Origin: an uncultured Planctomycetia bacterium
GTDB lineage: Bacteria; Omnitrophota; Gorgyraeia; S143-82
Assembly (NCBI GenBank): GCA_964469495.1
Contig: CAYXYY010000030.1
Location: 10,262-74,261, forward strand
Reading direction: 5' to 3'
DNA length: 64,000 nt
The notes below the pieces were generated by a model, which was not told the origin of the DNA, did no database searches, and was given only the letters and a program-made list of their open reading frames with translations. Position 1 is the stretch's first letter; each line of letters begins with the position of its first letter. Both the position numbers and the translations under genes were made by a program. Of the stretch, positions 12,061-53,807 are shown in pieces.

Positions 12061-12858
12061 CTATTTTTTAGCAAAGATATCTTGATTAAGCCTGCCAAAG
12101 GAATCAAAACAGCTCTTTCTAGTAAATACGATTGTCATCAATACGCTAAATACCGTGCTTACCAATATAGCAGACATTATCATTATCTGATATTTGATGG
12201 CAACAACCGGGTCTGCGCCCCCCAAAATCACGCCTGTCATCATCCCCGGCAAAGAAACTATGCCCATCGTGGCCATTGCAGCAAGTGTTGGTTGCAAGGC
12301 AAGCCGCATACTCTCTTTTAAGAACGGCAATGTTGCCTCACTTACGGTTGCGCCGTTTGCAATCAAGAAGAGGTATTTCTTATAGTGTTCTTTTATGCCT
12401 TTATAAAACGACGATATGCCGACTATGCTTCCTCTAAGGGAATTGCCCAGCACCATCCCACCCAACACTATCAGATATCTTGCATCAAATATGAAATCCA
12501 ATCTAACCACAAATATATTCAAAAACAACACCACAAAAAACGTTGCTGTGAAAAAAGAGGCAAAGGCAGGCCACAATACATATTTCACGGATAAATAAGA
12601 CCGCCCTATGGCCGAGAAAACAGCGACTATAACCATCACTATAAGCCAAACTACGTTTATAAACGGGTTATTTAATTTGAATATATATACCAAGAATACT
12701 CCTATAAGCGCCAATTGCAAAGACATTCTCAAAAATGAAAAGATTATCTGTCTGACAAGGCCCAAGCCAAAACGAAGGCTCAAAAATATCGGGATACATA
12801 ACAGGCTGACAGCCAATAAAAGCGCCGGCAACGACAGATTAACGGTCTCTTGAGTCAT
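12061..12858 (-). CDS. ABC transporter permease of the FetB/YbbM type (UPF0014), a putative iron-export permease.
   Basis: 265-aa polytopic membrane protein. It overlaps and is co-oriented with the upstream ABC ATPase. Its size and topology match FetB-like permeases. Confidence 0.55.
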   Translation of the reverse strand: MTQETVNLSLPALLLAVSLLCIPIFLSLRFGLGLVRQIIFSFLRMSLQLALIGVFLVYIFKLNNPFINVVWLIVMVIVAVFSAIGRSYLSVKYVLWPAFASFFTATFFVVLFLNIFVVRLDFIFDARYLIVLGGMVLGNSLRGSIVGISSFYKGIKEHYKKYLFLIANGATVSEATLPFLKESMRLALQPTLAAMATMGIVSLPGMMTGVILGGADPVVAIKYQIMIMSAILVSTVFSVLMTIVFTRKSCFDSFGRLNQDIFAKK

Positions 12859-13480
12859 TTACTACCCCTATCTCTACGGCATTGGTAATCCCGCTATGCC
12901 AAACCTCATCATGAGATATAACCAGAACCGTCCAGTCCTTTTTAGACAAAAACAGGCCCGCTGTTTTTTCTTTTAATCGCTTATCCAAAAATGCGGTTGG
13001 CTCGTCTAATATAAAAACATCTCTGTTCAAGCTCAATAAGGACACTATGCCAATTCTCTGCCTCTGGCCTCCTGACAAATCCATTATATCTTTATCCATA
13101 ATAGACAAAGGTAGTCCAAAAAAATCAAACCAGTTTTTTATATCCCCCATCTTATCTCCCAAATGGTGGTTTACACTGAAAGAAAAAAGGAATTCAAACC
13201 ACCCCCTAACACTTAACTGTGGCAGCGATACGTCTTGATCAAGGTAAGCGCACAACCTGCGCACATTGCAGATGGTATCAGGCGAGAGCTCATTGCCATT
13301 AAACAAAACGCTTCCTTTATCTGCCAATTCAATACCTAAAATAATCCTAAACAAGGTGCTTTTACCCGCGCCTGAACCTCCTTTTATCAGGACCTTTCCG
13401 CCCTTTTCCACGAACAGATTGAAATCCTGTAATACGGGTTCTTTCTTATAACTCTTGTATAATGACCTGCACTCTATCAC
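12839..13480 (-). CDS. ABC transporter ATP-binding protein (FetA-like).
   Basis: Walker A GGSGAGKST, signature LSGGQRQR, and Walker B ILDEP. 213 aa. Confidence 0.8.
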   Translation of the reverse strand: MIECRSLYKSYKKEPVLQDFNLFVEKGGKVLIKGGSGAGKSTLFRIILGIELADKGSVLFNGNELSPDTICNVRRLCAYLDQDVSLPQLSVRGWFEFLFSFSVNHHLGDKMGDIKNWFDFFGLPLSIMDKDIMDLSGGQRQRIGIVSLLSLNRDVFILDEPTAFLDKRLKEKTAGLFLSKKDWTVLVISHDEVWHSGITNAVEIGVVNDSRDR

Positions 13481-14223: not shown

Positions 14224-14928
14224 CTATCCCGTGCTCCTGAAAAGCGCCCAATCCCCCTCTTGCATAATATATTCCTTGCCTTCCAACTTCAATCTCCCTG
14301 ACTGCCTTACTGCGGAAAGGCTGCCCAACTCTATTATGTCGTCATATTTTGCAATCTCTGCCCTGACAAAACCACGGGCAATATCCGTGTGTATAATGCC
14401 TGCGCATTCATGGGCAGTCTGGCCCAGACGAAACATCCATGCATGGGAATCCTTCTCCCCAGCTGTAAAAAATATACCTCGTCCGAAAATAGCCCACCAC
14501 AAGTCAGGCAAATCAGAGATCTGCGCGTTGCTATCTTCAAGAACAATATACGGAAGCAGGCTGTATATGGGATATTCATTTAACCTGCCTGCCTCATCCT
14601 GCGAGATATCACCCTGTTTTATGCCGTCATACAACGGCCTTTCACTCTCAAGCAATGCCATTGCCTTCTCCAATAATGCCTTGTCCTGAGAGGCCTCTTT
14701 GAGCTTCCTGTCTATAAAATCCATATCGTCAACGATCAGGTCAAAGAGCGCTTCCTGACTGCATATAATGCCTTCGCATGTATTTATCCTATCCTTGCCA
14801 AGAAAAAATGCGGATGCCGGCACGATTTCCTTTGATTTAAAAATCCCCTTCAAGGCCTTTAACCGATCATCTGGTATCTTAACCTTATTTTTAGGGAAGT
14901 TATCCAATCCCAAAACCGCTATATTCAT
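14224..14928 (-). CDS. YchF-like protein reduced to the helical insertion and the C-terminal TGS/DUF933 domain. The G-domain P-loop is missing.
   Basis: The C-terminus AGIIHTDIARGFVRAEIAKYDD...GRLKLEGKEYIMQEGD parallels the YchF TGS domain (IHTDFEKGFIRAE...EGKDYIVKDGD). The N-terminus MNIAVLGLDNFPKNK has no GxxxxGKS. There are only 234 aa, and the upstream gene's stop overlaps the start, so no missing exon is possible. Confidence 0.5.
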   Translation of the reverse strand: MNIAVLGLDNFPKNKVKIPDDRLKALKGIFKSKEIVPASAFFLGKDRINTCEGIICSQEALFDLIVDDMDFIDRKLKEASQDKALLEKAMALLESERPLYDGIKQGDISQDEAGRLNEYPIYSLLPYIVLEDSNAQISDLPDLWWAIFGRGIFFTAGEKDSHAWMFRLGQTAHECAGIIHTDIARGFVRAEIAKYDDIIELGSLSAVRQSGRLKLEGKEYIMQEGDWALFRSTG

Positions 14929-16643
14929 TTTGAGTTATCTCCTTTCTGCTCCCAAAAACTTACCACAGCCCTTAAACTTCCTGATGGACTATTATGCACA
15001 ATAAATCGCTCAAAGTAAAGCGTATCTGGATTGACCCATATGTTTATATAATCTCCATCCCTATCCTGAAATTTCAGGACTATCTTACCGTTATCCTTAA
15101 CAGATGCAATGAGTTTTGCGTTTGATAAAGCCCTGATAAGGCCTTGCAAAGAGAAGTTATCCAACATCTCCATCGCAGTTTTATACTGCGCGCTGTCTTT
15201 TTTTATCGGCGCTTGTCTTGAACCTTCTACTGAGAACAAATCATCTGCCTTGCGCCTGCAAGATATAAACAGGTATCCTGTGCCATCGAAGACCTTCCCC
15301 TGCATCTCCGCCTCTAAATCCGGCAAAAATTGGATAGAGGCCATTGCCTCTAATGCGCCGAATTGGCCTATTGGAATGGAAGAGTTTACCAATATAGCAT
15401 CTGCGCGATATCTCTTCCTGAAACGATTCGCATCTATAGCCTTTTGAATGTCTATTTCAGCGTTTGAACCATTCACCTCAAATCCGCCATACTCCAACGC
15501 CTTGATAAGCCAATCACCTGTTGTCTTAAGCTGAGAAAACATCTGTTTATCCACCCTTTGCAATACCAACATCTGATTACGCAAACAAGGGACATCCAGC
15601 CTATTTATACAATCCTGGGCAGTGACATAATATAAATAACCATCGTCAGGAGTATAGGATTTTAATCTTTGCAGCAGGCCCAAAAACTTGGCGCGCGAGT
15701 CTTTATCCTGCGGCATATCCGCATATACTCTGGCAAGAAGCCTGAGCATAGATATCTTGTGTTTTTTCCCATTAATGCGATTTAGATAAGACTCGCAAAT
15801 CTCTCTAACTTCTTTTGATTCCATTGCATTTGTTTCCAGCGACCACTTGGCGGAAGACTTGGCCACTATTCTTTTAAACTCCTTTGACTTATCGTCAATC
15901 CTGAGGCCCAACAAAAGCTGCCTGGCCGCCTCCTGTTTCTGGCGAGAACGAAAATCCCTGTCTTCGCCTTTAAGCATATCCAATAACTTAAGGTCTATAT
16001 CCTCATCTGAGACAATATGGCCTGACTTGTCCACCTTTATATCTAATTGCTTTAACAGATTCACAATACGTTTATCAGGATGGCCCCTATAATACACATA
16101 AAGCCTTGCAATACGTTGCGCCACTATATCATCGGAAAGCCACAGGTTTATAACCTTATGTACGATCTCTTTGTTCCCTGTGATAAAAAACTCTATCCAC
16201 AATACGTCCGGGTCCTGTTCAAAATCCGTAATATCTACCTTTTTTTGCGATTCAGCCTGTTTAATAACCTTTGCCCGCTCAGGGAACTCTTTTTTTAATT
16301 CAGCTAAGGCCTGCCTTGCCTGAAGGGTCCCTGCTTTACCCATTGCCAAAACCACCAAAGAAAATCCGGTTTTTGCAACCTTACGGGCCAAGTCCTTATA
16401 GTCTTTTGTCAAGTCAGGATATATCTGCAACATTCTTGCAAAACAATAAACCATAGGCATTATATCCCTGCCATTAAAAGCCCCTTTTTCCGCCTGACGG
16501 CACACTGCATTAAGCCCGGAAAGAACCTCAGATTTGTTCGGATTTTTATAAAATCCCCTTGGAAAGGCATTGCCAAAACCGCTATTAATAAATCCGAAGA
16601 AAATGGAAAACACCAACAAAAACACAAACCGTTTTTTAATCAT
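14925..16643 (-). CDS. Hypothetical secreted protein (572 aa) with an N-terminal signal peptide.
   Basis: Long ORF whose hydrophobic N-terminus (VFLLVFSIFFGFINSGFG) looks like a signal peptide. I recognise no catalytic motif. Confidence 0.45.
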   Translation of the reverse strand: MIKKRFVFLLVFSIFFGFINSGFGNAFPRGFYKNPNKSEVLSGLNAVCRQAEKGAFNGRDIMPMVYCFARMLQIYPDLTKDYKDLARKVAKTGFSLVVLAMGKAGTLQARQALAELKKEFPERAKVIKQAESQKKVDITDFEQDPDVLWIEFFITGNKEIVHKVINLWLSDDIVAQRIARLYVYYRGHPDKRIVNLLKQLDIKVDKSGHIVSDEDIDLKLLDMLKGEDRDFRSRQKQEAARQLLLGLRIDDKSKEFKRIVAKSSAKWSLETNAMESKEVREICESYLNRINGKKHKISMLRLLARVYADMPQDKDSRAKFLGLLQRLKSYTPDDGYLYYVTAQDCINRLDVPCLRNQMLVLQRVDKQMFSQLKTTGDWLIKALEYGGFEVNGSNAEIDIQKAIDANRFRKRYRADAILVNSSIPIGQFGALEAMASIQFLPDLEAEMQGKVFDGTGYLFISCRRKADDLFSVEGSRQAPIKKDSAQYKTAMEMLDNFSLQGLIRALSNAKLIASVKDNGKIVLKFQDRDGDYINIWVNPDTLYFERFIVHNSPSGSLRAVVSFWEQKGDNSK

Positions 16644-16662: not shown

Positions 16663-17346
16663 TCATTTTTCTACTGTTAAATTATAAGGCAAAATCGGTA
16701 TGGCGCCTTTAATCAACACAGGCAACATATCTTCTTTGCGAAAAAATACAATCACCTTTTTGGGCCTGCTGGAAACCATAACAGAAGAAAACCTGCCTAT
16801 CCTCGTATTTATAACGCGGTCTTTACCGACTATTATCTCCAACAACTGTTTTGGCAGCTGCAGTTTCATCCCTGTTTGAGGCCTCTGCCCCTGCTGCCAC
16901 AATCTATAAATAAAGGCAAAGACGTTATCTATCGGCAATGATTGTTTAAGGGCCGCAATCTGTTTGCCATTCTTTGTGATGCGCACCTCCTTATCTGCAT
17001 AATTATAATCCTCTATAATCTCCTCAGACATGCCCAGATAGGTCAACTGGCGAAATATCTTGTAAGGATAAAGCGTTTTTTCATCTAAATATATGTCCTC
17101 TTTATCTTTTAACTGGGGCGTGCGCACCTCTACCTGAAGATGCTCACATTCAATTCCATCCAGACGCGTCTTGCCAAAGACATGCCATTTGGCCCGGCCT
17201 ATCCTTACCATACCTATTTTTACCACGTATGACAAATCCCTCTTTTCCACTGCATAACCCCTTCCCGGACAAAACAACAGAATCAAAAGAATAGATATCA
17301 ACCTACCCATAACCACCCCTTTCACCGACTGGTTAAATATATCCAC
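16663..17346 (-). CDS. Hypothetical secreted protein, possibly DUF3108-like.
   Basis: A signal peptide (LISILLILLFCPGRGYA) precedes a mostly beta-strand-like sequence. It lies immediately downstream of the FeoB-like gene. Confidence 0.35.
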   Translation of the reverse strand: MDIFNQSVKGVVMGRLISILLILLFCPGRGYAVEKRDLSYVVKIGMVRIGRAKWHVFGKTRLDGIECEHLQVEVRTPQLKDKEDIYLDEKTLYPYKIFRQLTYLGMSEEIIEDYNYADKEVRITKNGKQIAALKQSLPIDNVFAFIYRLWQQGQRPQTGMKLQLPKQLLEIIVGKDRVINTRIGRFSSVMVSSRPKKVIVFFRKEDMLPVLIKGAIPILPYNLTVEK

Positions 17347-19316
17347 CCCATTGCAACTAATAAAGAAACCACTCCAAAAACAACTGCCCTCCTGCTCCTA
17401 ACGGCAATCGGGCAATTAGGCAAAAATGCCAGTAAAACCGACCACAACACCACCAAATCAAACGACAACCTGATTTTCCCTGAATACAATAATGCCGCCA
17501 ACAATAAAAAAACTGCTTTACTGATAATCAAGGCGAGCGTAAATATTGATTTAACAGCAAAACTGTGTTGAAGAAAATCAACCCCCATCGGACGTATTTT
17601 CATCAAATAGGATATAATCCCGGCAACAAATGTCAAAACAAAAAATAACCAAAGTCCCGCTTTTCTTAAAAACGCGCTTACATATATAAATGCCTGGCCA
17701 AAAACAAAACCTGGTTTAGGCAAGGCATACGGAGGCAGGTCCATAACCAAAGGCCGGCCTTCCGCAGAAACATTATCAATGCGTTTATATAATAAAAGGG
17801 ACGATAAGATAGACAAAAGGATAAATGCCAATAACAATAATATCCTCTCCGGCATAGGCACACCTGCAATATAGAATATGCAACTCAATACCAATACCTT
17901 GCCTATGCAAATAAACTGCGGGGCAATAGATGTAGGGCAGGCTAATGGACAAACAGCTGATTTAAGGAGCTCCTGAAAAACAACACCATGAAAACCTATC
18001 CTGTGCAAGGCAGAATCCAAAAGAAAACCTATGCGTTTTATATAATTGCTCTGTTTAAAGCCTTCAAACAACACAAAACTAAACAATAAAAATGCGGAAA
18101 CCAAGAAAACCCCGCCGCCAGCGTAAACAAGGGCGCTTAATACGACAAATCCTGTTGAGGAAAGCCATTGGCATAAATTGCTAAACCCCGCAAACAAAAA
18201 AACGCCTGCCTCAAGCAGGGCAAAAACAGATGCAAACAAAAGGACAAACGCCATTGGCAAACCCAATACAGGATTCAAAAACAACGTATCCAACATCCGA
18301 GAAACAGAGATGCGCCTGCACATAGAAGAGCGCTCCACCTCGCGCAAAAGCCCGTTTACAAAACCAAAACGCGCTTCTTCAATTATTCTGCGCGCCTCTT
18401 TGCCAAACTTTGCTTCAACGCCATTTATAACCTTTTCTCTTTCCATTAACAACTTAGGCAACAAGGTATCCTTGACGTTTGAAAAAACAATAGGGCAATT
18501 TTCCTTATCTTCCAAACAAAAAAGGACAAACGGATATGCCATCTTTCCAACCGATTCAGAAACTGCCAAAAGCATTGGCGATAACAGCTTGACAAATTCA
18601 TCTGATAGAGGGAATAAAGGATAATTATCCACATCGCAGGAAACAATAGCCTGAAGAGCTATATCCCAAAACACGCAATTATCCGTTATACGATTTGCGT
18701 CAAAAACCTTAACTCGCAACAATCGGGAAAGGGCATCAATATCTATCTCCTTACACTCCTCGATTAACCCGGATATCACGATAAAAAATCTAACGCGGGC
18801 CTGTAAAAATACCGCGGCTGTTGTGATACCCGCAAACATATCCTTATAATCAAAATACAAGACAAATCCCTCAAACCGGCCGTCAAAGAAGTTTTGCAAC
18901 CGGCCGCTCAATGAGGCCTTCCCTGAAAACGAGGCCCTTCCTAAAAACTCACATGAAAGCATATTATTATTCGTGCGAAGACAAGAACTGCCAATACCAT
19001 TTCCAAGCAAGGAATCAAAATTATCAACATCAACTCTGCCAACGGTAAATAACCCTAAACGAACAGAATTATCTTTAGATAAGGGCCTGACAATAACGTG
19101 CCGGGACAATCCAGCTCCTATCGCAAACCTGTCTGCGCCTACCTCCACCTTAAACGGGCCGCCGCCTCCCATCTTATTCAAGAGAACCAATTGCGCGCCC
19201 GGAACAATGCCCATATCCGACAACCTAAGCTGCGCTTGCCTTCCGCAAGAGATCCTCACCACATAAAGAGGCACACCGATAGGCGCATCAGCAAGGGTGG
19301 TAATATCTCTTTCCAT
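17322..19316 (-). CDS. FeoA-FeoB-like fusion protein. It has an N-terminal FeoA SH3-like domain, a region with a degenerate GTPase P-loop, and a C-terminal FeoB-type membrane domain.
   Basis: N-terminus VVRISCGRQAQLRLSDMGIVPGAQLVLL is FeoA-like. LGRASFSGKASL resembles a FeoB G1 motif (GNPNSGKTTL) with one inserted residue and T->A. The membrane domain contains the FeoB-typical VMDLPPYALPKPG motif. 664 aa. Confidence 0.5.
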   Translation of the reverse strand: MERDITTLADAPIGVPLYVVRISCGRQAQLRLSDMGIVPGAQLVLLNKMGGGGPFKVEVGADRFAIGAGLSRHVIVRPLSKDNSVRLGLFTVGRVDVDNFDSLLGNGIGSSCLRTNNNMLSCEFLGRASFSGKASLSGRLQNFFDGRFEGFVLYFDYKDMFAGITTAAVFLQARVRFFIVISGLIEECKEIDIDALSRLLRVKVFDANRITDNCVFWDIALQAIVSCDVDNYPLFPLSDEFVKLLSPMLLAVSESVGKMAYPFVLFCLEDKENCPIVFSNVKDTLLPKLLMEREKVINGVEAKFGKEARRIIEEARFGFVNGLLREVERSSMCRRISVSRMLDTLFLNPVLGLPMAFVLLFASVFALLEAGVFLFAGFSNLCQWLSSTGFVVLSALVYAGGGVFLVSAFLLFSFVLFEGFKQSNYIKRIGFLLDSALHRIGFHGVVFQELLKSAVCPLACPTSIAPQFICIGKVLVLSCIFYIAGVPMPERILLLLAFILLSILSSLLLYKRIDNVSAEGRPLVMDLPPYALPKPGFVFGQAFIYVSAFLRKAGLWLFFVLTFVAGIISYLMKIRPMGVDFLQHSFAVKSIFTLALIISKAVFLLLAALLYSGKIRLSFDLVVLWSVLLAFLPNCPIAVRSRRAVVFGVVSLLVAMGWIYLTSR

Positions 19317-19507
19317 TAATCCACCTTATAAAATCTATCCTGAGAACCATACGGCGAGATCTTAAACTCCACCTTCTTACAACACTTCGGGCAAAAACCG
19401 ACATATGCACTGCGGGCATTGTTTAAATAAATGCGCTGATAGACATTGCAACAGTCAAATATAATACCAATAAACGCGCGCTTTGACTTGGGCCTATGAC
19501 TATTCAT
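19316..19507 (-). CDS. Small Cys-rich protein (about 63 aa from the internal Met). It may be a FeoB-associated Cys-rich protein.
   Basis: The motifs DCC...CPKCC are present. It lies immediately upstream of the FeoAB-like gene on the same strand and overlaps the 3' end of panB. The coding call is uncertain. Confidence 0.25.
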   Translation of the reverse strand: MNSHRPKSKRAFIGIIFDCCNVYQRIYLNNARSAYVGFCPKCCKKVEFKISPYGSQDRFYKVD

Positions 19508-20294
19508 ATATGTTCTCTTCCTTAGGGAAATTCCCCTGCCTGACTTCTTCAACGTATTGAGAAACAGCGCTGTTATAAGCCTGCCATACGTCGCTATACG
19601 ATTTCACAAACTTGGGCCGAAACTTATCAAACGCGCCGACAACATCGTCAAACACAAGGACCTGTCCATCAGTATAACGTCCGGCGCCGATCCCTATAAC
19701 AGGTATAGCAAGCTGTTCACTAATACGCCTGCCAAGTTGTTCAGGCACACATTCAAGCACTAATGAGAAACATCCCGCCTCCTGCAATCGCACGGCCTCT
19801 TCTAGCAATGCATCCTGCGAGGCATCGTCTCTGCCCTGCACCTTAAATCCGGATCGATTAACAAGGCTCTGTGGAGTAAGCCCGATATGGCCCATAACCT
19901 CTATGCCGATATCCCTCATTGCCTTTACGTCATCAATAATCTTGGGATTTGCGCCTTCCAATTTTACAGCATTTGCCCTGCCCTGCTGTAAAAATCTAAT
20001 CGCGTTTTTAACGCTCTCTTCAGCAAGCACGCCATAAGAACCAAAAGGCATATCTGCAACAACAAAGCTCTCCTGCGCGCCCTGCCTTACAGCTGAAACA
20101 AACAACAACATCTCATCCACGCTTATAGGAATAGTGGACGGCCTTCCTAAAAACGTCATAGCAAGAGAATCCCCGACAAGGATAATGTCAACCCCGTTTT
20201 CCTCGCAGGCCATCGCCGTCGGCGCGCTATAGGCCGTGAGCATCACAATAGGCTCTTTGCCCTTTTTATCTTGTATGAAATTCACATTCCGCAT
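19500..20294 (-). CDS. panB: 3-methyl-2-oxobutanoate hydroxymethyltransferase (ketopantoate hydroxymethyltransferase).
   Basis: IVMLTAYSAPTAMACEENGVDIILVGDSLAMTFLG is the conserved PanB N-terminal region. 264 aa. Confidence 0.9.
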   Translation of the reverse strand: MRNVNFIQDKKGKEPIVMLTAYSAPTAMACEENGVDIILVGDSLAMTFLGRPSTIPISVDEMLLFVSAVRQGAQESFVVADMPFGSYGVLAEESVKNAIRFLQQGRANAVKLEGANPKIIDDVKAMRDIGIEVMGHIGLTPQSLVNRSGFKVQGRDDASQDALLEEAVRLQEAGCFSLVLECVPEQLGRRISEQLAIPVIGIGAGRYTDGQVLVFDDVVGAFDKFRPKFVKSYSDVWQAYNSAVSQYVEEVRQGNFPKEENIYE

Positions 20295-26184: not shown

Positions 26185-26418
26185 CATCCCCCTCTACAAT
26201 TTATTGACATCAAAAAGGACCGCCTTGCCGTGGAATAGACATAGCCTGAACCCCAAAACAAAGTGGGAACTCGCCTTATGCCCCACGGGACACAAGGACG
26301 ACAGTCCCCTGTTTCAAGGTGTTGGTTCAGCTACGTGCCTATACCTCACGAACAAGGCAGTACCCATTACTAATAATAACAAAACCCGGATAAAAAGGCA
26401 ATCTTTATAAAAAGCGAT

Positions 26419-47640: not shown

Positions 47641-48303
47641 TTATATAATCTCAAAAGCAGACCTCAAAGATTTTATTGCCTTTACTCTATCTTCCGCGCG
47701 GAAGATAAAACTGCCGGCAACCAATATATCAACTCCGGCTTTGGCAGTTAAACGCGCGCTCTCGGCATTAATACCGCCGTCCACAGAAATCATCCCCTCA
47801 AACACCTTTCTAATCTCCCTTATCTTCTCAACAGCAACCGGCATAAACTCCTGCCCGCCAAATCCCGGCTCAACAGACATCACCAAAATCATGTCCAAGT
47901 CAGATAAAAATGGCATAAGTTCTGCAACCTCTGTTGCCGGTTTTATTGACAGGCCAGCCTTTGCACCTTTGCTCTTCACAATAGAAATAAACTCCTTTAC
48001 TTCATCTTGGCTTGAAAACGCCTCTATGTGCGCGGTCAAAAATCGCGCGCCTGCGTCCAAAAACGCATTTGCATATCTATTGGGATTCTCTATCATCAAG
48101 TGTACGTCCAAAGGAACATCTGTTATCTTATTTATGGCCTTGACAATAAAAGGGCCTATGGTGATATTCGGCACAAAATGCCCGTCCATAACATCTACGT
48201 GCCACAGGTCTGCCAAAGGCTCCACGTCTGCAATATCCTTGAAAAGGCACGAGAAATCCGCTGAAAGCAAAGAAGGCGCAATAAGGCCCTTATTCAACTC
48301 CAT
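47641..48303 (-). CDS. rpe: Ribulose-phosphate 3-epimerase.
   Basis: IAPSLLSADF...HVDVMDGHFVPNITIGP is an almost invariant Rpe N-terminus. Confidence 0.9.
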   Translation of the reverse strand: MELNKGLIAPSLLSADFSCLFKDIADVEPLADLWHVDVMDGHFVPNITIGPFIVKAINKITDVPLDVHLMIENPNRYANAFLDAGARFLTAHIEAFSSQDEVKEFISIVKSKGAKAGLSIKPATEVAELMPFLSDLDMILVMSVEPGFGGQEFMPVAVEKIREIRKVFEGMISVDGGINAESARLTAKAGVDILVAGSFIFRAEDRVKAIKSLRSAFEII

Positions 48304-49264
48304 CCAACAGCTCCTTTACCCTTGACAACAACTCATCCAAACCAAACCCTGTCTTTGCGCTGGCAATCACAACAGGGACGTCCTTTCCAAAATCCGCAAC
48401 ACACCTTTTTATCTTTCCTATATTATCCACAAGATCTGCCTTATTTAAAACAACTATTTGCCTCTTTTTGAGTATATCAGGATTATAAAGCCTCATCTCC
48501 TCATTTATCTTGGAAAATCTATTTAACAATTCCGCGCAGTCATCAATATCGGAAACGTCAATAACATGCAGGAGCATCCTTGCCCGTTCTATGTGCTTTA
48601 AGAACTTATCCCCTAAACCCCTGCCTTTGTGCGCGCCCTCAATAAGTCCGGGCATATCCGCTATTACTATCTCAAGATCAGGCAACGCCCCTATGACCGG
48701 GTTTTTTGTCGTAAAGTGATATTCCGCTGTCTTTGCGCCAGCGCCTGTCAGCGCATTAAGCAGGCTTGATTTACCCACACTTGGAAATCCTACAATCCCC
48801 ACATCGGATATATACTTGAGCTCCAGTATAAGTTCCCGCTCTTCCCCGGGCTTTGGAGGGACGACCTCTTTATCCTTTGTATAAGCATTGCCCACGCCGC
48901 CTCTGCCACCCTTTGCAACAACAACGGAATCACCAGGCTTATCAAGAGATTTCAATACCTTCCCGGAGAATGCATCTTTGACTATCGTTCCCGGCGGGAC
49001 ATTTAAAACAAGCGGGTCTCTATCCTTGCCACGTTTTCTGCTGCTACTGCCGTGCCCGCCGCGTTTTCCCTTGAAATGTTGTCTAAAATGGAAGGCCCGC
49101 AAGGTATTTAAGGATTCGTCGGCCTCAACGATTATATCAGAGCCGTCTCCCCCGCAACCGCCATCGGCCCGAGGAAACCGCATACGCCTGTTCTTGAAAA
49201 AACTGCGACAGCCCTTTCCGCCATCGCCGGCCTTGACCCAGACCTTGACAAAATCAATAGCCAT
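48290..49264 (-). CDS. obg: GTPase Obg (Obg fold plus G domain; no long C-terminal domain).
   Basis: FVKVWVKAGDGGKGCRSFFKN... glycine-rich Obg fold. G domain with GFPSVGKSSLLNALT, DMPGLIEGA and NKAD motifs. Confidence 0.9.
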   Translation of the reverse strand: MAIDFVKVWVKAGDGGKGCRSFFKNRRMRFPRADGGCGGDGSDIIVEADESLNTLRAFHFRQHFKGKRGGHGSSSRKRGKDRDPLVLNVPPGTIVKDAFSGKVLKSLDKPGDSVVVAKGGRGGVGNAYTKDKEVVPPKPGEERELILELKYISDVGIVGFPSVGKSSLLNALTGAGAKTAEYHFTTKNPVIGALPDLEIVIADMPGLIEGAHKGRGLGDKFLKHIERARMLLHVIDVSDIDDCAELLNRFSKINEEMRLYNPDILKKRQIVVLNKADLVDNIGKIKRCVADFGKDVPVVIASAKTGFGLDELLSRVKELLDGVE

Positions 49265-53734: not shown

Positions 53735-53807
53735 GCCGGGATAGCTCAGGAGGTAGAGCGCAGGCCTGAAAAGCCTGGCGTCCCCAGTTCGACTCTGGGT
53801 CCCGGCA
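53735..53807 (+). tRNA. tRNA-Phe (anticodon GAA), 73 nt. CCA is not encoded.
   Basis: I folded it by hand. Acceptor GCCGGGA/TCCCGGC, D-stem GCTC/GAGC, anticodon stem CAGGC/GCCTG with loop CTGAAAA, T-stem CCCAG/CTGGG with T-loop TTCGACT. It is followed by a T-run. Confidence 0.85.

Follow-up and report, generated by a model that had tools for sequence, protein, structure and literature searches.

A 664-aa protein encoded in DNA of an uncultured Planctomycetia bacterium (GTDB lineage Bacteria; Omnitrophota; Gorgyraeia; S143-82) is best described as a real and intact FeoAB-derived variant, not as a FeoB proper, and its G domain appears to persist as a fold devoid of a recognisable nucleotide site. 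The stretch analysed, referred to below as the window, comprises 64,000 nucleotides (GenBank assembly GCA_964469495.1, contig CAYXYY010000030.1, positions 10,262 to 74,261). The fusion gene (P0001) is an uninterrupted open reading frame (ORF) at 17322–19316 on the minus strand, and an ortholog of 663 aa (P0002) with 43% identity over 98% of the length is present in a sister lineage. FeoB is the most widespread bacterial ferrous-iron importer, and the coupling of its G domain to Fe2+ passage, whether as energy source, timer or gate, is the central unsolved question; no full-length FeoB structure was found among PDB sequences.

Domain organisation of the fusion protein

Four regions follow one another in the protein, all encoded on the minus strand: a FeoA (SH3-like) domain (residues 7–78; 19083–19298), a relic G domain predicted to be a pseudo-GTPase (residues ~81–230; 18627–19076), the relic of a helical (GDI/S) domain (residues ~231–340; 18297–18626) and a trimmed FeoB-type permease domain (residues 341–664; 17325–18296). 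This is the organisation of a FeoAB fusion, namely a single ORF in which FeoA precedes colinear regions resembling the soluble part of FeoB (NFeoB) and its permease.

The N-terminal FeoA domain expected from the initial annotation was confirmed by Pfam PF04023 (49.5 bits versus a cutoff of 23, residues 7–78) and by the FeoA structure 3e19 (E 4e-6); the PDB sequence matches of the fusion were FeoA proteins only. Of the four profiles that the annotation had named, FeoA alone scored above threshold. FeoB_C (PF07664) reached 24.0 bits versus 26.6 (residues 493–540), FeoB_N (PF02421) was not matched at E<=1, leaving the protein outside the FeoB G-domain family, and the Gate domain (PF07670) was not matched in the Pfam scan. 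The helical-domain profile FeoB_Cyto (PF17910) likewise remained below threshold (18.1 versus 23.4 bits, residues 287–327), and the score for the NCBIfam equivalog TIGR00437 was 27.4 bits, as compared with a cutoff of 315.65.

Origin of the middle region

The ~260 residues between FeoA and the permease probably descend from the G domain and the helical domain of FeoB and appear to be a fold-only relic, as indicated by profile comparison, a shuffle control, sequence alignment and AlphaFold2 models. In hhalign with a profile of 15 canonical FeoBs, family residues 92–660 aligned colinearly with FeoB positions 17–700 (probability 99.5%, E 3e-22). Residues 81–215 alone matched the G-domain profile weakly (residues 162–205 versus FeoB 104–150, score 27.3, P ~1e-3), but this match falls at the colinear position, and in a column-shuffle control (score 12.3±2.4, maximum 22.4) none of 150 shuffles reached the observed score. 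Residues 288–339 matched the end of the FeoB helical domain with P 3e-7. In a MAFFT alignment of 25 sequences, EIDIDALSRLLRVKVF of the family lies opposite the canonical RIDIDALSARLGCPVV (α4-β6), with D192, L196, S197 and L200 in almost invariant columns, and the helical relic ends in the conserved coupling segment RFGFVNGxxREV.

An AlphaFold2 model from the family alone (8 sequences, 2 effective) had a mean predicted local distance difference test score (pLDDT) of 35 and was used for the order of secondary-structure elements only, which is β-α-β-β-β-β-α-β-α-β-α for residues 84–225. With the 25-sequence alignment the mean pLDDT was 69 (62–86 for residues 150–330), and the helices of the helical relic, with pLDDT of 73–86, superposed on NFeoB. 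A Foldseek comparison with the PDB gave NFeoB structures only among the 50 matches listed; the model and solved NFeoBs share ~265 aligned columns with a target-normalised TM-score of 0.60–0.70 and 12–18% identity.

Loss of the GTPase motifs

In the motif columns of the MAFFT and hhalign alignments, G1, G2, G4 and G5 are absent from both family members. At the G1 position (~residues 92–99), where canonical FeoBs have G(N/L)PNxGK(S/T), the family reads VGRVDVDN or CGDFDVAA by hhalign, or PLSKDNSV by MAFFT, and in neither register is there a P-loop or the lysine and Ser/Thr of the motif. The switch I threonine of G2 (GxTV) is lost, SGLI or RSLD is found in place of N(M/L)xD at G4, and nothing corresponds to G5 in either member. 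Of the G3 motif D(L/I/T)PG, the glycine alone survives (EFLG in one lineage and AFLG in the other).

The stretch LGRASFSGKASL had been taken for a degenerate G1. This assignment is not tenable, as the stretch aligns with the G3 (DxxG)/switch II position, or immediately behind it, by MAFFT as well as by hhalign. Within it, S131-G132-K133 is invariant between the two lineages and is followed by Ala in one and Ile in the other, with the spacing GxxxxxGK. The ORF contains no Walker A motif GxxxxGK[ST], nor does any of the six frames across 17000–19700, so that no intact motif emerges in a corrected reading frame, and tblastn with four canonical FeoBs gave matches confined to the ORF's own frame. 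A frameshift or a G domain hidden in another frame was excluded by these two analyses.

By every sequence criterion, the middle region would be a pseudo-GTPase. The description of the soluble middle as a degenerate GTPase region therefore stands, being in agreement with hhalign, the shuffle control, the alignment and the model, and the suggestion that the protein may work independently of nucleotide, in the canonical sense, is in keeping with the lack of G1, G2, G4 and G5 in both members.

The permease domain

A FeoB-type membrane domain with its signature motif had been predicted at the C-terminus and was recovered by BLASTP (residues 303–552 versus a FeoB, 25% identity, E 8e-19) as well as in the hhalign match given above. 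VMDLPPYALPKPG aligns with the 'Core CFeoB' motif ELPxYxxP, and L527, P528 and P533 of this loop are invariant in the 25 sequences. C456, C470 and C635 are also invariant and correspond to enterobacterial C403 (the cysteine of GFGCN), C432 (SCG) and C677 (PC), respectively. For Pseudomonas aeruginosa FeoB, such cysteines have been proposed as pore and sensor residues and as Fe2+ ligand or sensor sites (PMC4847171), and metal binding has been proposed for the Core-CFeoB loop (PMC11920956).

The permease has 324 aa, as compared with 370–476 aa in canonical FeoBs, and lacks the long loops on either side of the second gate as well as any C-terminal tail. The shortening relative to FeoAB fusions that had been pointed out amounts to 122 aa when the fusion is compared with a 786-aa fusion (P0059); it is located in the membrane domain, however, and not in the soluble region.

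Conservation and distribution of the family

In the two lineages the fusion ORF is uninterrupted, with 664 and 663 aa, and it was found in at least eight assemblies. Between the lineages, the proportion of synonymous differences (pS) is saturated at 0.70–0.86 (0.72 for the fusion), and the proportion of nonsynonymous differences (pN) in the fusion is 0.41, far below saturation. As a 2-kb frame has stayed open at equal length over saturated synonymous divergence, the ORF is under selection. By domain, pN is 0.28 for FeoA, 0.42 for the relic G region, 0.48 for the helical region and 0.40 for the membrane domain, with identities to the ortholog of 59, 43, 34 and 42%, respectively; hence the relic G region is constrained as much as the membrane domain. 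Twelve of the 15 cysteines of the fusion are conserved between the lineages. Ratios of nonsynonymous to synonymous substitution rates (dN/dS) within clusters are mostly ~0.1–0.4 and up to 0.4–0.8 in some pairs, but with 2–11 substitutions per pair they are uninformative.

Both lineages share the gene order nrdR, a nitroreductase gene, an ORF of 130–135 aa, an M50 peptidase gene, panB, a small ORF, the fusion gene, a DUF3108-like gene, a gene for a secreted protein of 570 aa and a ychF-like gene. In the sister lineage, this arrangement recurs in no fewer than four independent assemblies (L001, L020, L021 and L022), and the neighbouring genes are 59–87% identical to their counterparts.

Word-indexed searches of 5.8 billion protein clusters revealed P0002 as the sole relative, the remaining matches being distant canonical FeoBs. 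The P0002 cluster has seven near-identical members, which come from NCBI metagenome-assembled genomes and one JGI metagenome. With a profile of the middle region (residues 81–340), HMMER was run exhaustively against 1.84 billion representatives and retrieved just P0001 and P0002. A scan of 185,579 GTDB species-representative genomes gave no family member, only canonical FeoB/FeoAB loci with 22–28% identity, and a scan of JGI metagenomes with the small upstream ORF gave no contig beyond the known one of the P0002 lineage. Thus, across the cluster, HMMER, GTDB and JGI searches, no members were found outside the lineage of the window and the P0002 lineage. The JGI contig of the latter originates from hydrothermal sediment of the Guaymas Basin (IMG sample 3300013103), i.e. 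an anoxic, hydrothermal sediment is the source of the sister lineage. The organism carrying the window is a diderm bacterium, as judged by the presence of a heptosyltransferase gene, dTDP-rhamnose synthesis genes, nrdR and a 6S RNA.

A FeoB with a lost or degenerate nucleotide site is not described in the surveys of Feo architecture (PMC8749426, PMC8980893) or in the literature found by a targeted search. The best reading of these data is a lineage-restricted, previously undescribed family.

Genes adjoining the fusion gene

Directly upstream of the fusion gene lies the small Cys-rich ORF noticed in the initial annotation (19316–19507, minus strand; DCC...CPxCC), which proved to be real, with 75% identity to a 67-aa gene in the operon of the ortholog; it is far better conserved than the transporter. 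Its start is probably the ATG at 19507 and not the TTG at 19552 as first assumed, and the exact 63-aa form so defined is found in public collections. The protein has the motif CC-x18-CPxCC and no hydrophobic segment, and beyond noise it gave no Pfam or NCBIfam match at E<=1 and no PDB match. Its ATG overlaps the stop codon of panB (ATGAATAG), and its stop codon overlaps the start of the fusion gene (TAATG), which is preceded by the Shine-Dalgarno sequence AAGGTGGA. The start/stop coupling is present in both lineages; it links translation of the small ORF with that of panB on its upstream side and of the fusion gene on its downstream side.

The gene downstream of the fusion gene (16663–17310, minus strand) starts 11 nt past the fusion stop codon, behind AAGGGGTGG, is likewise translationally coupled, and encodes a protein of 215 aa from the ATG at 17310, with 64% identity to the neighbour of the ortholog. 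The prediction of a secreted product is supported by the signal-peptide-like N-terminus MGRLISILLILLFCPGRGYA, but the assignment to DUF3108 (PF11306) remained below threshold, with 21 versus 26 bits over profile positions 1–96 of 209. The small ORF and the DUF3108-like gene are both absent from the 17 canonical feo loci examined.

The DUF3108-like gene is followed by a gene for a secreted-looking protein of 572 aa (14925–16643, minus strand), which is 49% identical to a 569-aa neighbour of the ortholog and belongs to the same conserved same-strand block; no family match was obtained for it. No Fur box was found near the operon, the counts being at chance. Counts of promoter-like sites are near chance, and terminator-like sites are about twice as frequent as by chance, none being convincing at a gene boundary; between the genes, neither a promoter nor a terminator is convincing.

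Comparison with known Feo systems

Among known systems, the FeoAB fusion of Bacteroidetes and Firmicutes comes closest. As in the Bacteroides and Porphyromonas proteins (B. fragilis; PMC8980893), FeoA is tethered to the soluble FeoB region, followed by the GDI domain and a permease with gate motifs, and FeoC is absent. In B. fragilis, the tethered FeoA makes GTP hydrolysis ~50-fold slower and favours the 'on' state with bound GTP (PMC8980893), and hydrolysis by Bacteroides FeoAB is already extremely slow. The known fusions, however, have canonical G1–G5 motifs and bind GTP, whereas only the vestigial G3 glycine is left here, and the membrane domain of the present protein is 50–150 aa shorter (664 versus 786 aa in total, when compared with P0059).

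With canonical FeoB (TIGR00437; FeoB_N, FeoB_Cyto, Gate, FeoB_C and Gate), the fusion shares a colinear domain order, the RFGF coupling motif, the gate cysteines (C403/C432/C677) and the Core-CFeoB (E/D)LPxYxxP loop. It differs in lacking a P-loop and any match to FeoB_N or Gate, and in its scores for FeoB_C and FeoB_Cyto, which are below the gathering values.

Outside the family, the nearest relative (E 8e-12) is a FeoB that also has 663 aa (P0003; Logan assembly SRR25429211, L024, 1498–3489, plus strand). Its G1, G3 and G4 positions are degenerate too, and loss of the nucleotide site may therefore recur among FeoBs, as far as can be judged from sequence. In contrast to the fusion, P0003 has a canonical membrane domain (Gate, 143 bits), keeps the C-terminal half of FeoB_N (38 bits), is not fused to FeoA, carries an N-terminal CxxxCxxC...C motif (CDLNCSGCPFLTSC) and adjoins a porin-like gene.

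FeoC and the Cys-rich peptide of PF12669, found in some Feo systems (PMC8749426), are likewise small proteins whose genes accompany that of a Feo permease. The sequence of the 63-aa protein matches neither of them, and its gene lies upstream and not downstream, with the cysteines of the product arranged as given above.

Pseudo-GTPases such as those in p190RhoGAP resemble the middle region in having a G-domain-like fold that is under selection without G motifs, presumably in a structural or regulatory role; they are eukaryotic signalling proteins, and the likeness is one of concept, not of ancestry. As regards this concept, the loss of motifs and selection are observed in the present family, and the fold is deduced from the profile match and from a model with canonical FeoBs in its alignment and pLDDT <50 in the half from G1 to G3. 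No prokaryotic transporter-linked pseudo-GTPase was found in the literature searched, and the fusion would be a prokaryotic, transporter-embedded addition to the concept.

Function of the fusion protein

In canonical Feo, the G domain is required yet GTP hydrolysis is too slow to energise transport, and a GTP-gated channel has therefore been proposed (PMC4847171). On balance, the fusion is probably a working FeoA-FeoB-derived permease for Fe2+, or a similar soft metal, with a nucleotide-blind cytoplasmic gate; both transport and nucleotide independence are what we infer from the features described. It would retain the SH3-like FeoA, the helical coupling domain and a permease core in which the three gate cysteines and the Core-CFeoB loop are kept; of the G domain, now without P-loop, switch I threonine, guanine-specificity motif NxxD and G5, the fold alone would remain. 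Such a protein would conduct a soft divalent cation, probably Fe2+, over the inner membrane of an anaerobic sediment bacterium, and a GTP/GDP cycle would have ceased to control its gating. On the cytoplasmic side, the two relic domains (G and helical) may serve as a plug, either fixed or under some other regulation, that is docked by the tethered FeoA, and the co-translated small Cys-rich protein may modulate the fusion. In Bacteroides FeoAB, the fused FeoA slows hydrolysis and holds the transporter 'on'; the present protein might then be where this trend ends.

Several observations weigh against this proposal. The G domain is required for uptake in canonical Feo (PMC4847171), and the conserved S131-G132-K133 could belong to an unconventional phosphate-binding site. 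The permease lacks a conserved 15-residue segment (xRxIDSPRERL) after the first gate cysteine and is short by 50–150 aa of loops as compared with canonical FeoBs; hence the function may have shifted. With a pN of 0.41 versus 0.10–0.28, the rate of evolution of the fusion is about double that of the neighbouring genes, and the constraint on it is therefore relaxed. Residues 95–140, spanning the half from G1 to G3, have pLDDT <50, and the alignment behind the pLDDT-69 model included canonical FeoBs. A canonical feoB partner may also lie elsewhere in the genome, outside the 64 kb.

Some of these observations would fit a neofunctionalised or accessory protein, i.e. a sensor or regulator, a transporter of another substrate, or a subunit acting together with a canonical FeoB encoded elsewhere. 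The trimmed permease with its lost Gate-1 segment, the fast evolution and an operon that includes secreted proteins without assigned function all point in this direction; in addition, FeoB trimers have been reported (PMC4847171), and a Mn2+-transporting FeoB, FeoB2 of P. gingivalis, is cited in PMC8749426. Conservation of the gate cysteines and of the Core-CFeoB loop is less easily explained in this way, no positive evidence for any alternative substrate was obtained, and tblastn with the four canonical FeoBs revealed no second feoB within the window. A change of role is therefore rather doubtful. If G126...S131-G132-K133 or some other surface formed an unconventional site for a nucleoside triphosphate (NTP), the protein would instead be a divergent, still active NTPase-gated FeoB. 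The two lineages share S131, G132 and K133, which come after a β-strand as in a P-loop, and some FeoBs are reported to be promiscuous NTPases (PMC11406355). However, the SGK stretch is homologous to G3/switch II and not to the β1-α1 junction, the Ala or Ile after the lysine provides no Mg2+-coordinating Ser/Thr and the spacing is GxxxxxGK. Moreover, the protein has neither the G4/G5 motifs for base recognition nor the switch I threonine, and no match was obtained to FeoB_N or to any other P-loop GTPase model of Pfam, which makes continued regulation by nucleotide distinctly unlikely.

Decay of the gene, which the initial annotation had also considered, would mean a FeoAB fusion turning into a pseudogene, with a dead G domain and an eroding membrane domain. 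It would account for the fusion gene evolving faster than the rest of the syntenic block (43% identity versus 59–87%), for several sub-threshold Pfam domains, for the deletions in the permease and for the noisy dN/dS within clusters (0.4–0.8 in some pairs). It is nevertheless highly improbable given frames of 664 and 663 aa that are intact despite saturated synonymous divergence, a pN of 0.41 versus a pS of 0.72 with even constraint over all four domains, retention of 12 of the 15 cysteines and of the FeoB gate motifs, start/stop coupling in both lineages, occurrence of the ORF in at least eight assemblies and a gene order conserved in at least four.

A further idea relates to the cysteines of the cytosolic middle region, seven of eight of which are conserved (C112, C122, C188, C214, C267, C274 and C333). 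The Cys content of this region is 3.1–3.9%, as compared with 0–2.5% in most canonical NFeoBs, one canonical group having 4.0%. Together with the Cys-rich mini-protein, these residues suggest gating by metal or redox state: the G domain might have been converted from a GTP switch to a Cys-based metal/redox sensor that, with the tethered FeoA and the co-translated CC...CPxCC protein, directly gates a minimal FeoB pore in response to cytoplasmic Fe2+ or redox state. Such a conversion is unlikely.

Returning to the nucleotide-blind permease, a selected FeoAB without a recognisable nucleotide site and with a minimal permease provides a ready-made test of the need for GTP. If the fusion imports iron in a feo-null host, NTP turnover would be dispensable for the permease, and the essential role of the G domain would be conformational. 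The analysis also points to the small Cys-rich protein as a new partner protein.

Other features of the window

A FeoB_N-like match at 48.3–49.3 kb was considered as a second feoB and rejected, as it belongs to Obg. This canonical Obg GTPase (48290–49264, minus strand) has intact MMR_HSR1 and FeoB_N-like matches, which indicates that ordinary TRAFAC GTPases of this genome keep their motifs.

At 14224–14928 on the minus strand, 2.4 kb from the fusion gene, a YchF-like protein of 234 aa is encoded, of which the last 80 residues alone match YchF (Pfam YchF-GTPase_C; TIGR00092 positions 287–366 of 368). The P-loop of YchF is expected as GLPNVGKST, and the N-terminus reads IAVLGLDNFPKNKV at the expected place. 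The protein is of equal length and 74% identical in L021 and L022. From its sequence, it would be a second P-loop-less GTPase derivative near the fusion.

About 4 kb downstream of the Feo-like operon, a pair of genes for an ABC ATPase and a UPF0014 permease (12061–13480, minus strand) resembles the FetA/FetB iron-efflux transporter; FetB TIGR00245 gave 123 bits, below the cutoff of 410, and FetA was among the top matches of the ATPase. Rfam matches in the window are limited to the 6S RNA (26213–26366, minus strand, 57 bits) and a tRNA gene (53735–53807, plus strand). Between 14000 and 24000, the plus strand has a strong negative GC skew that is nearly uniform and reaches about -0.4, and the genes are nearly all on the minus strand, which is consistent with one long co-oriented gene array on a single replichore.

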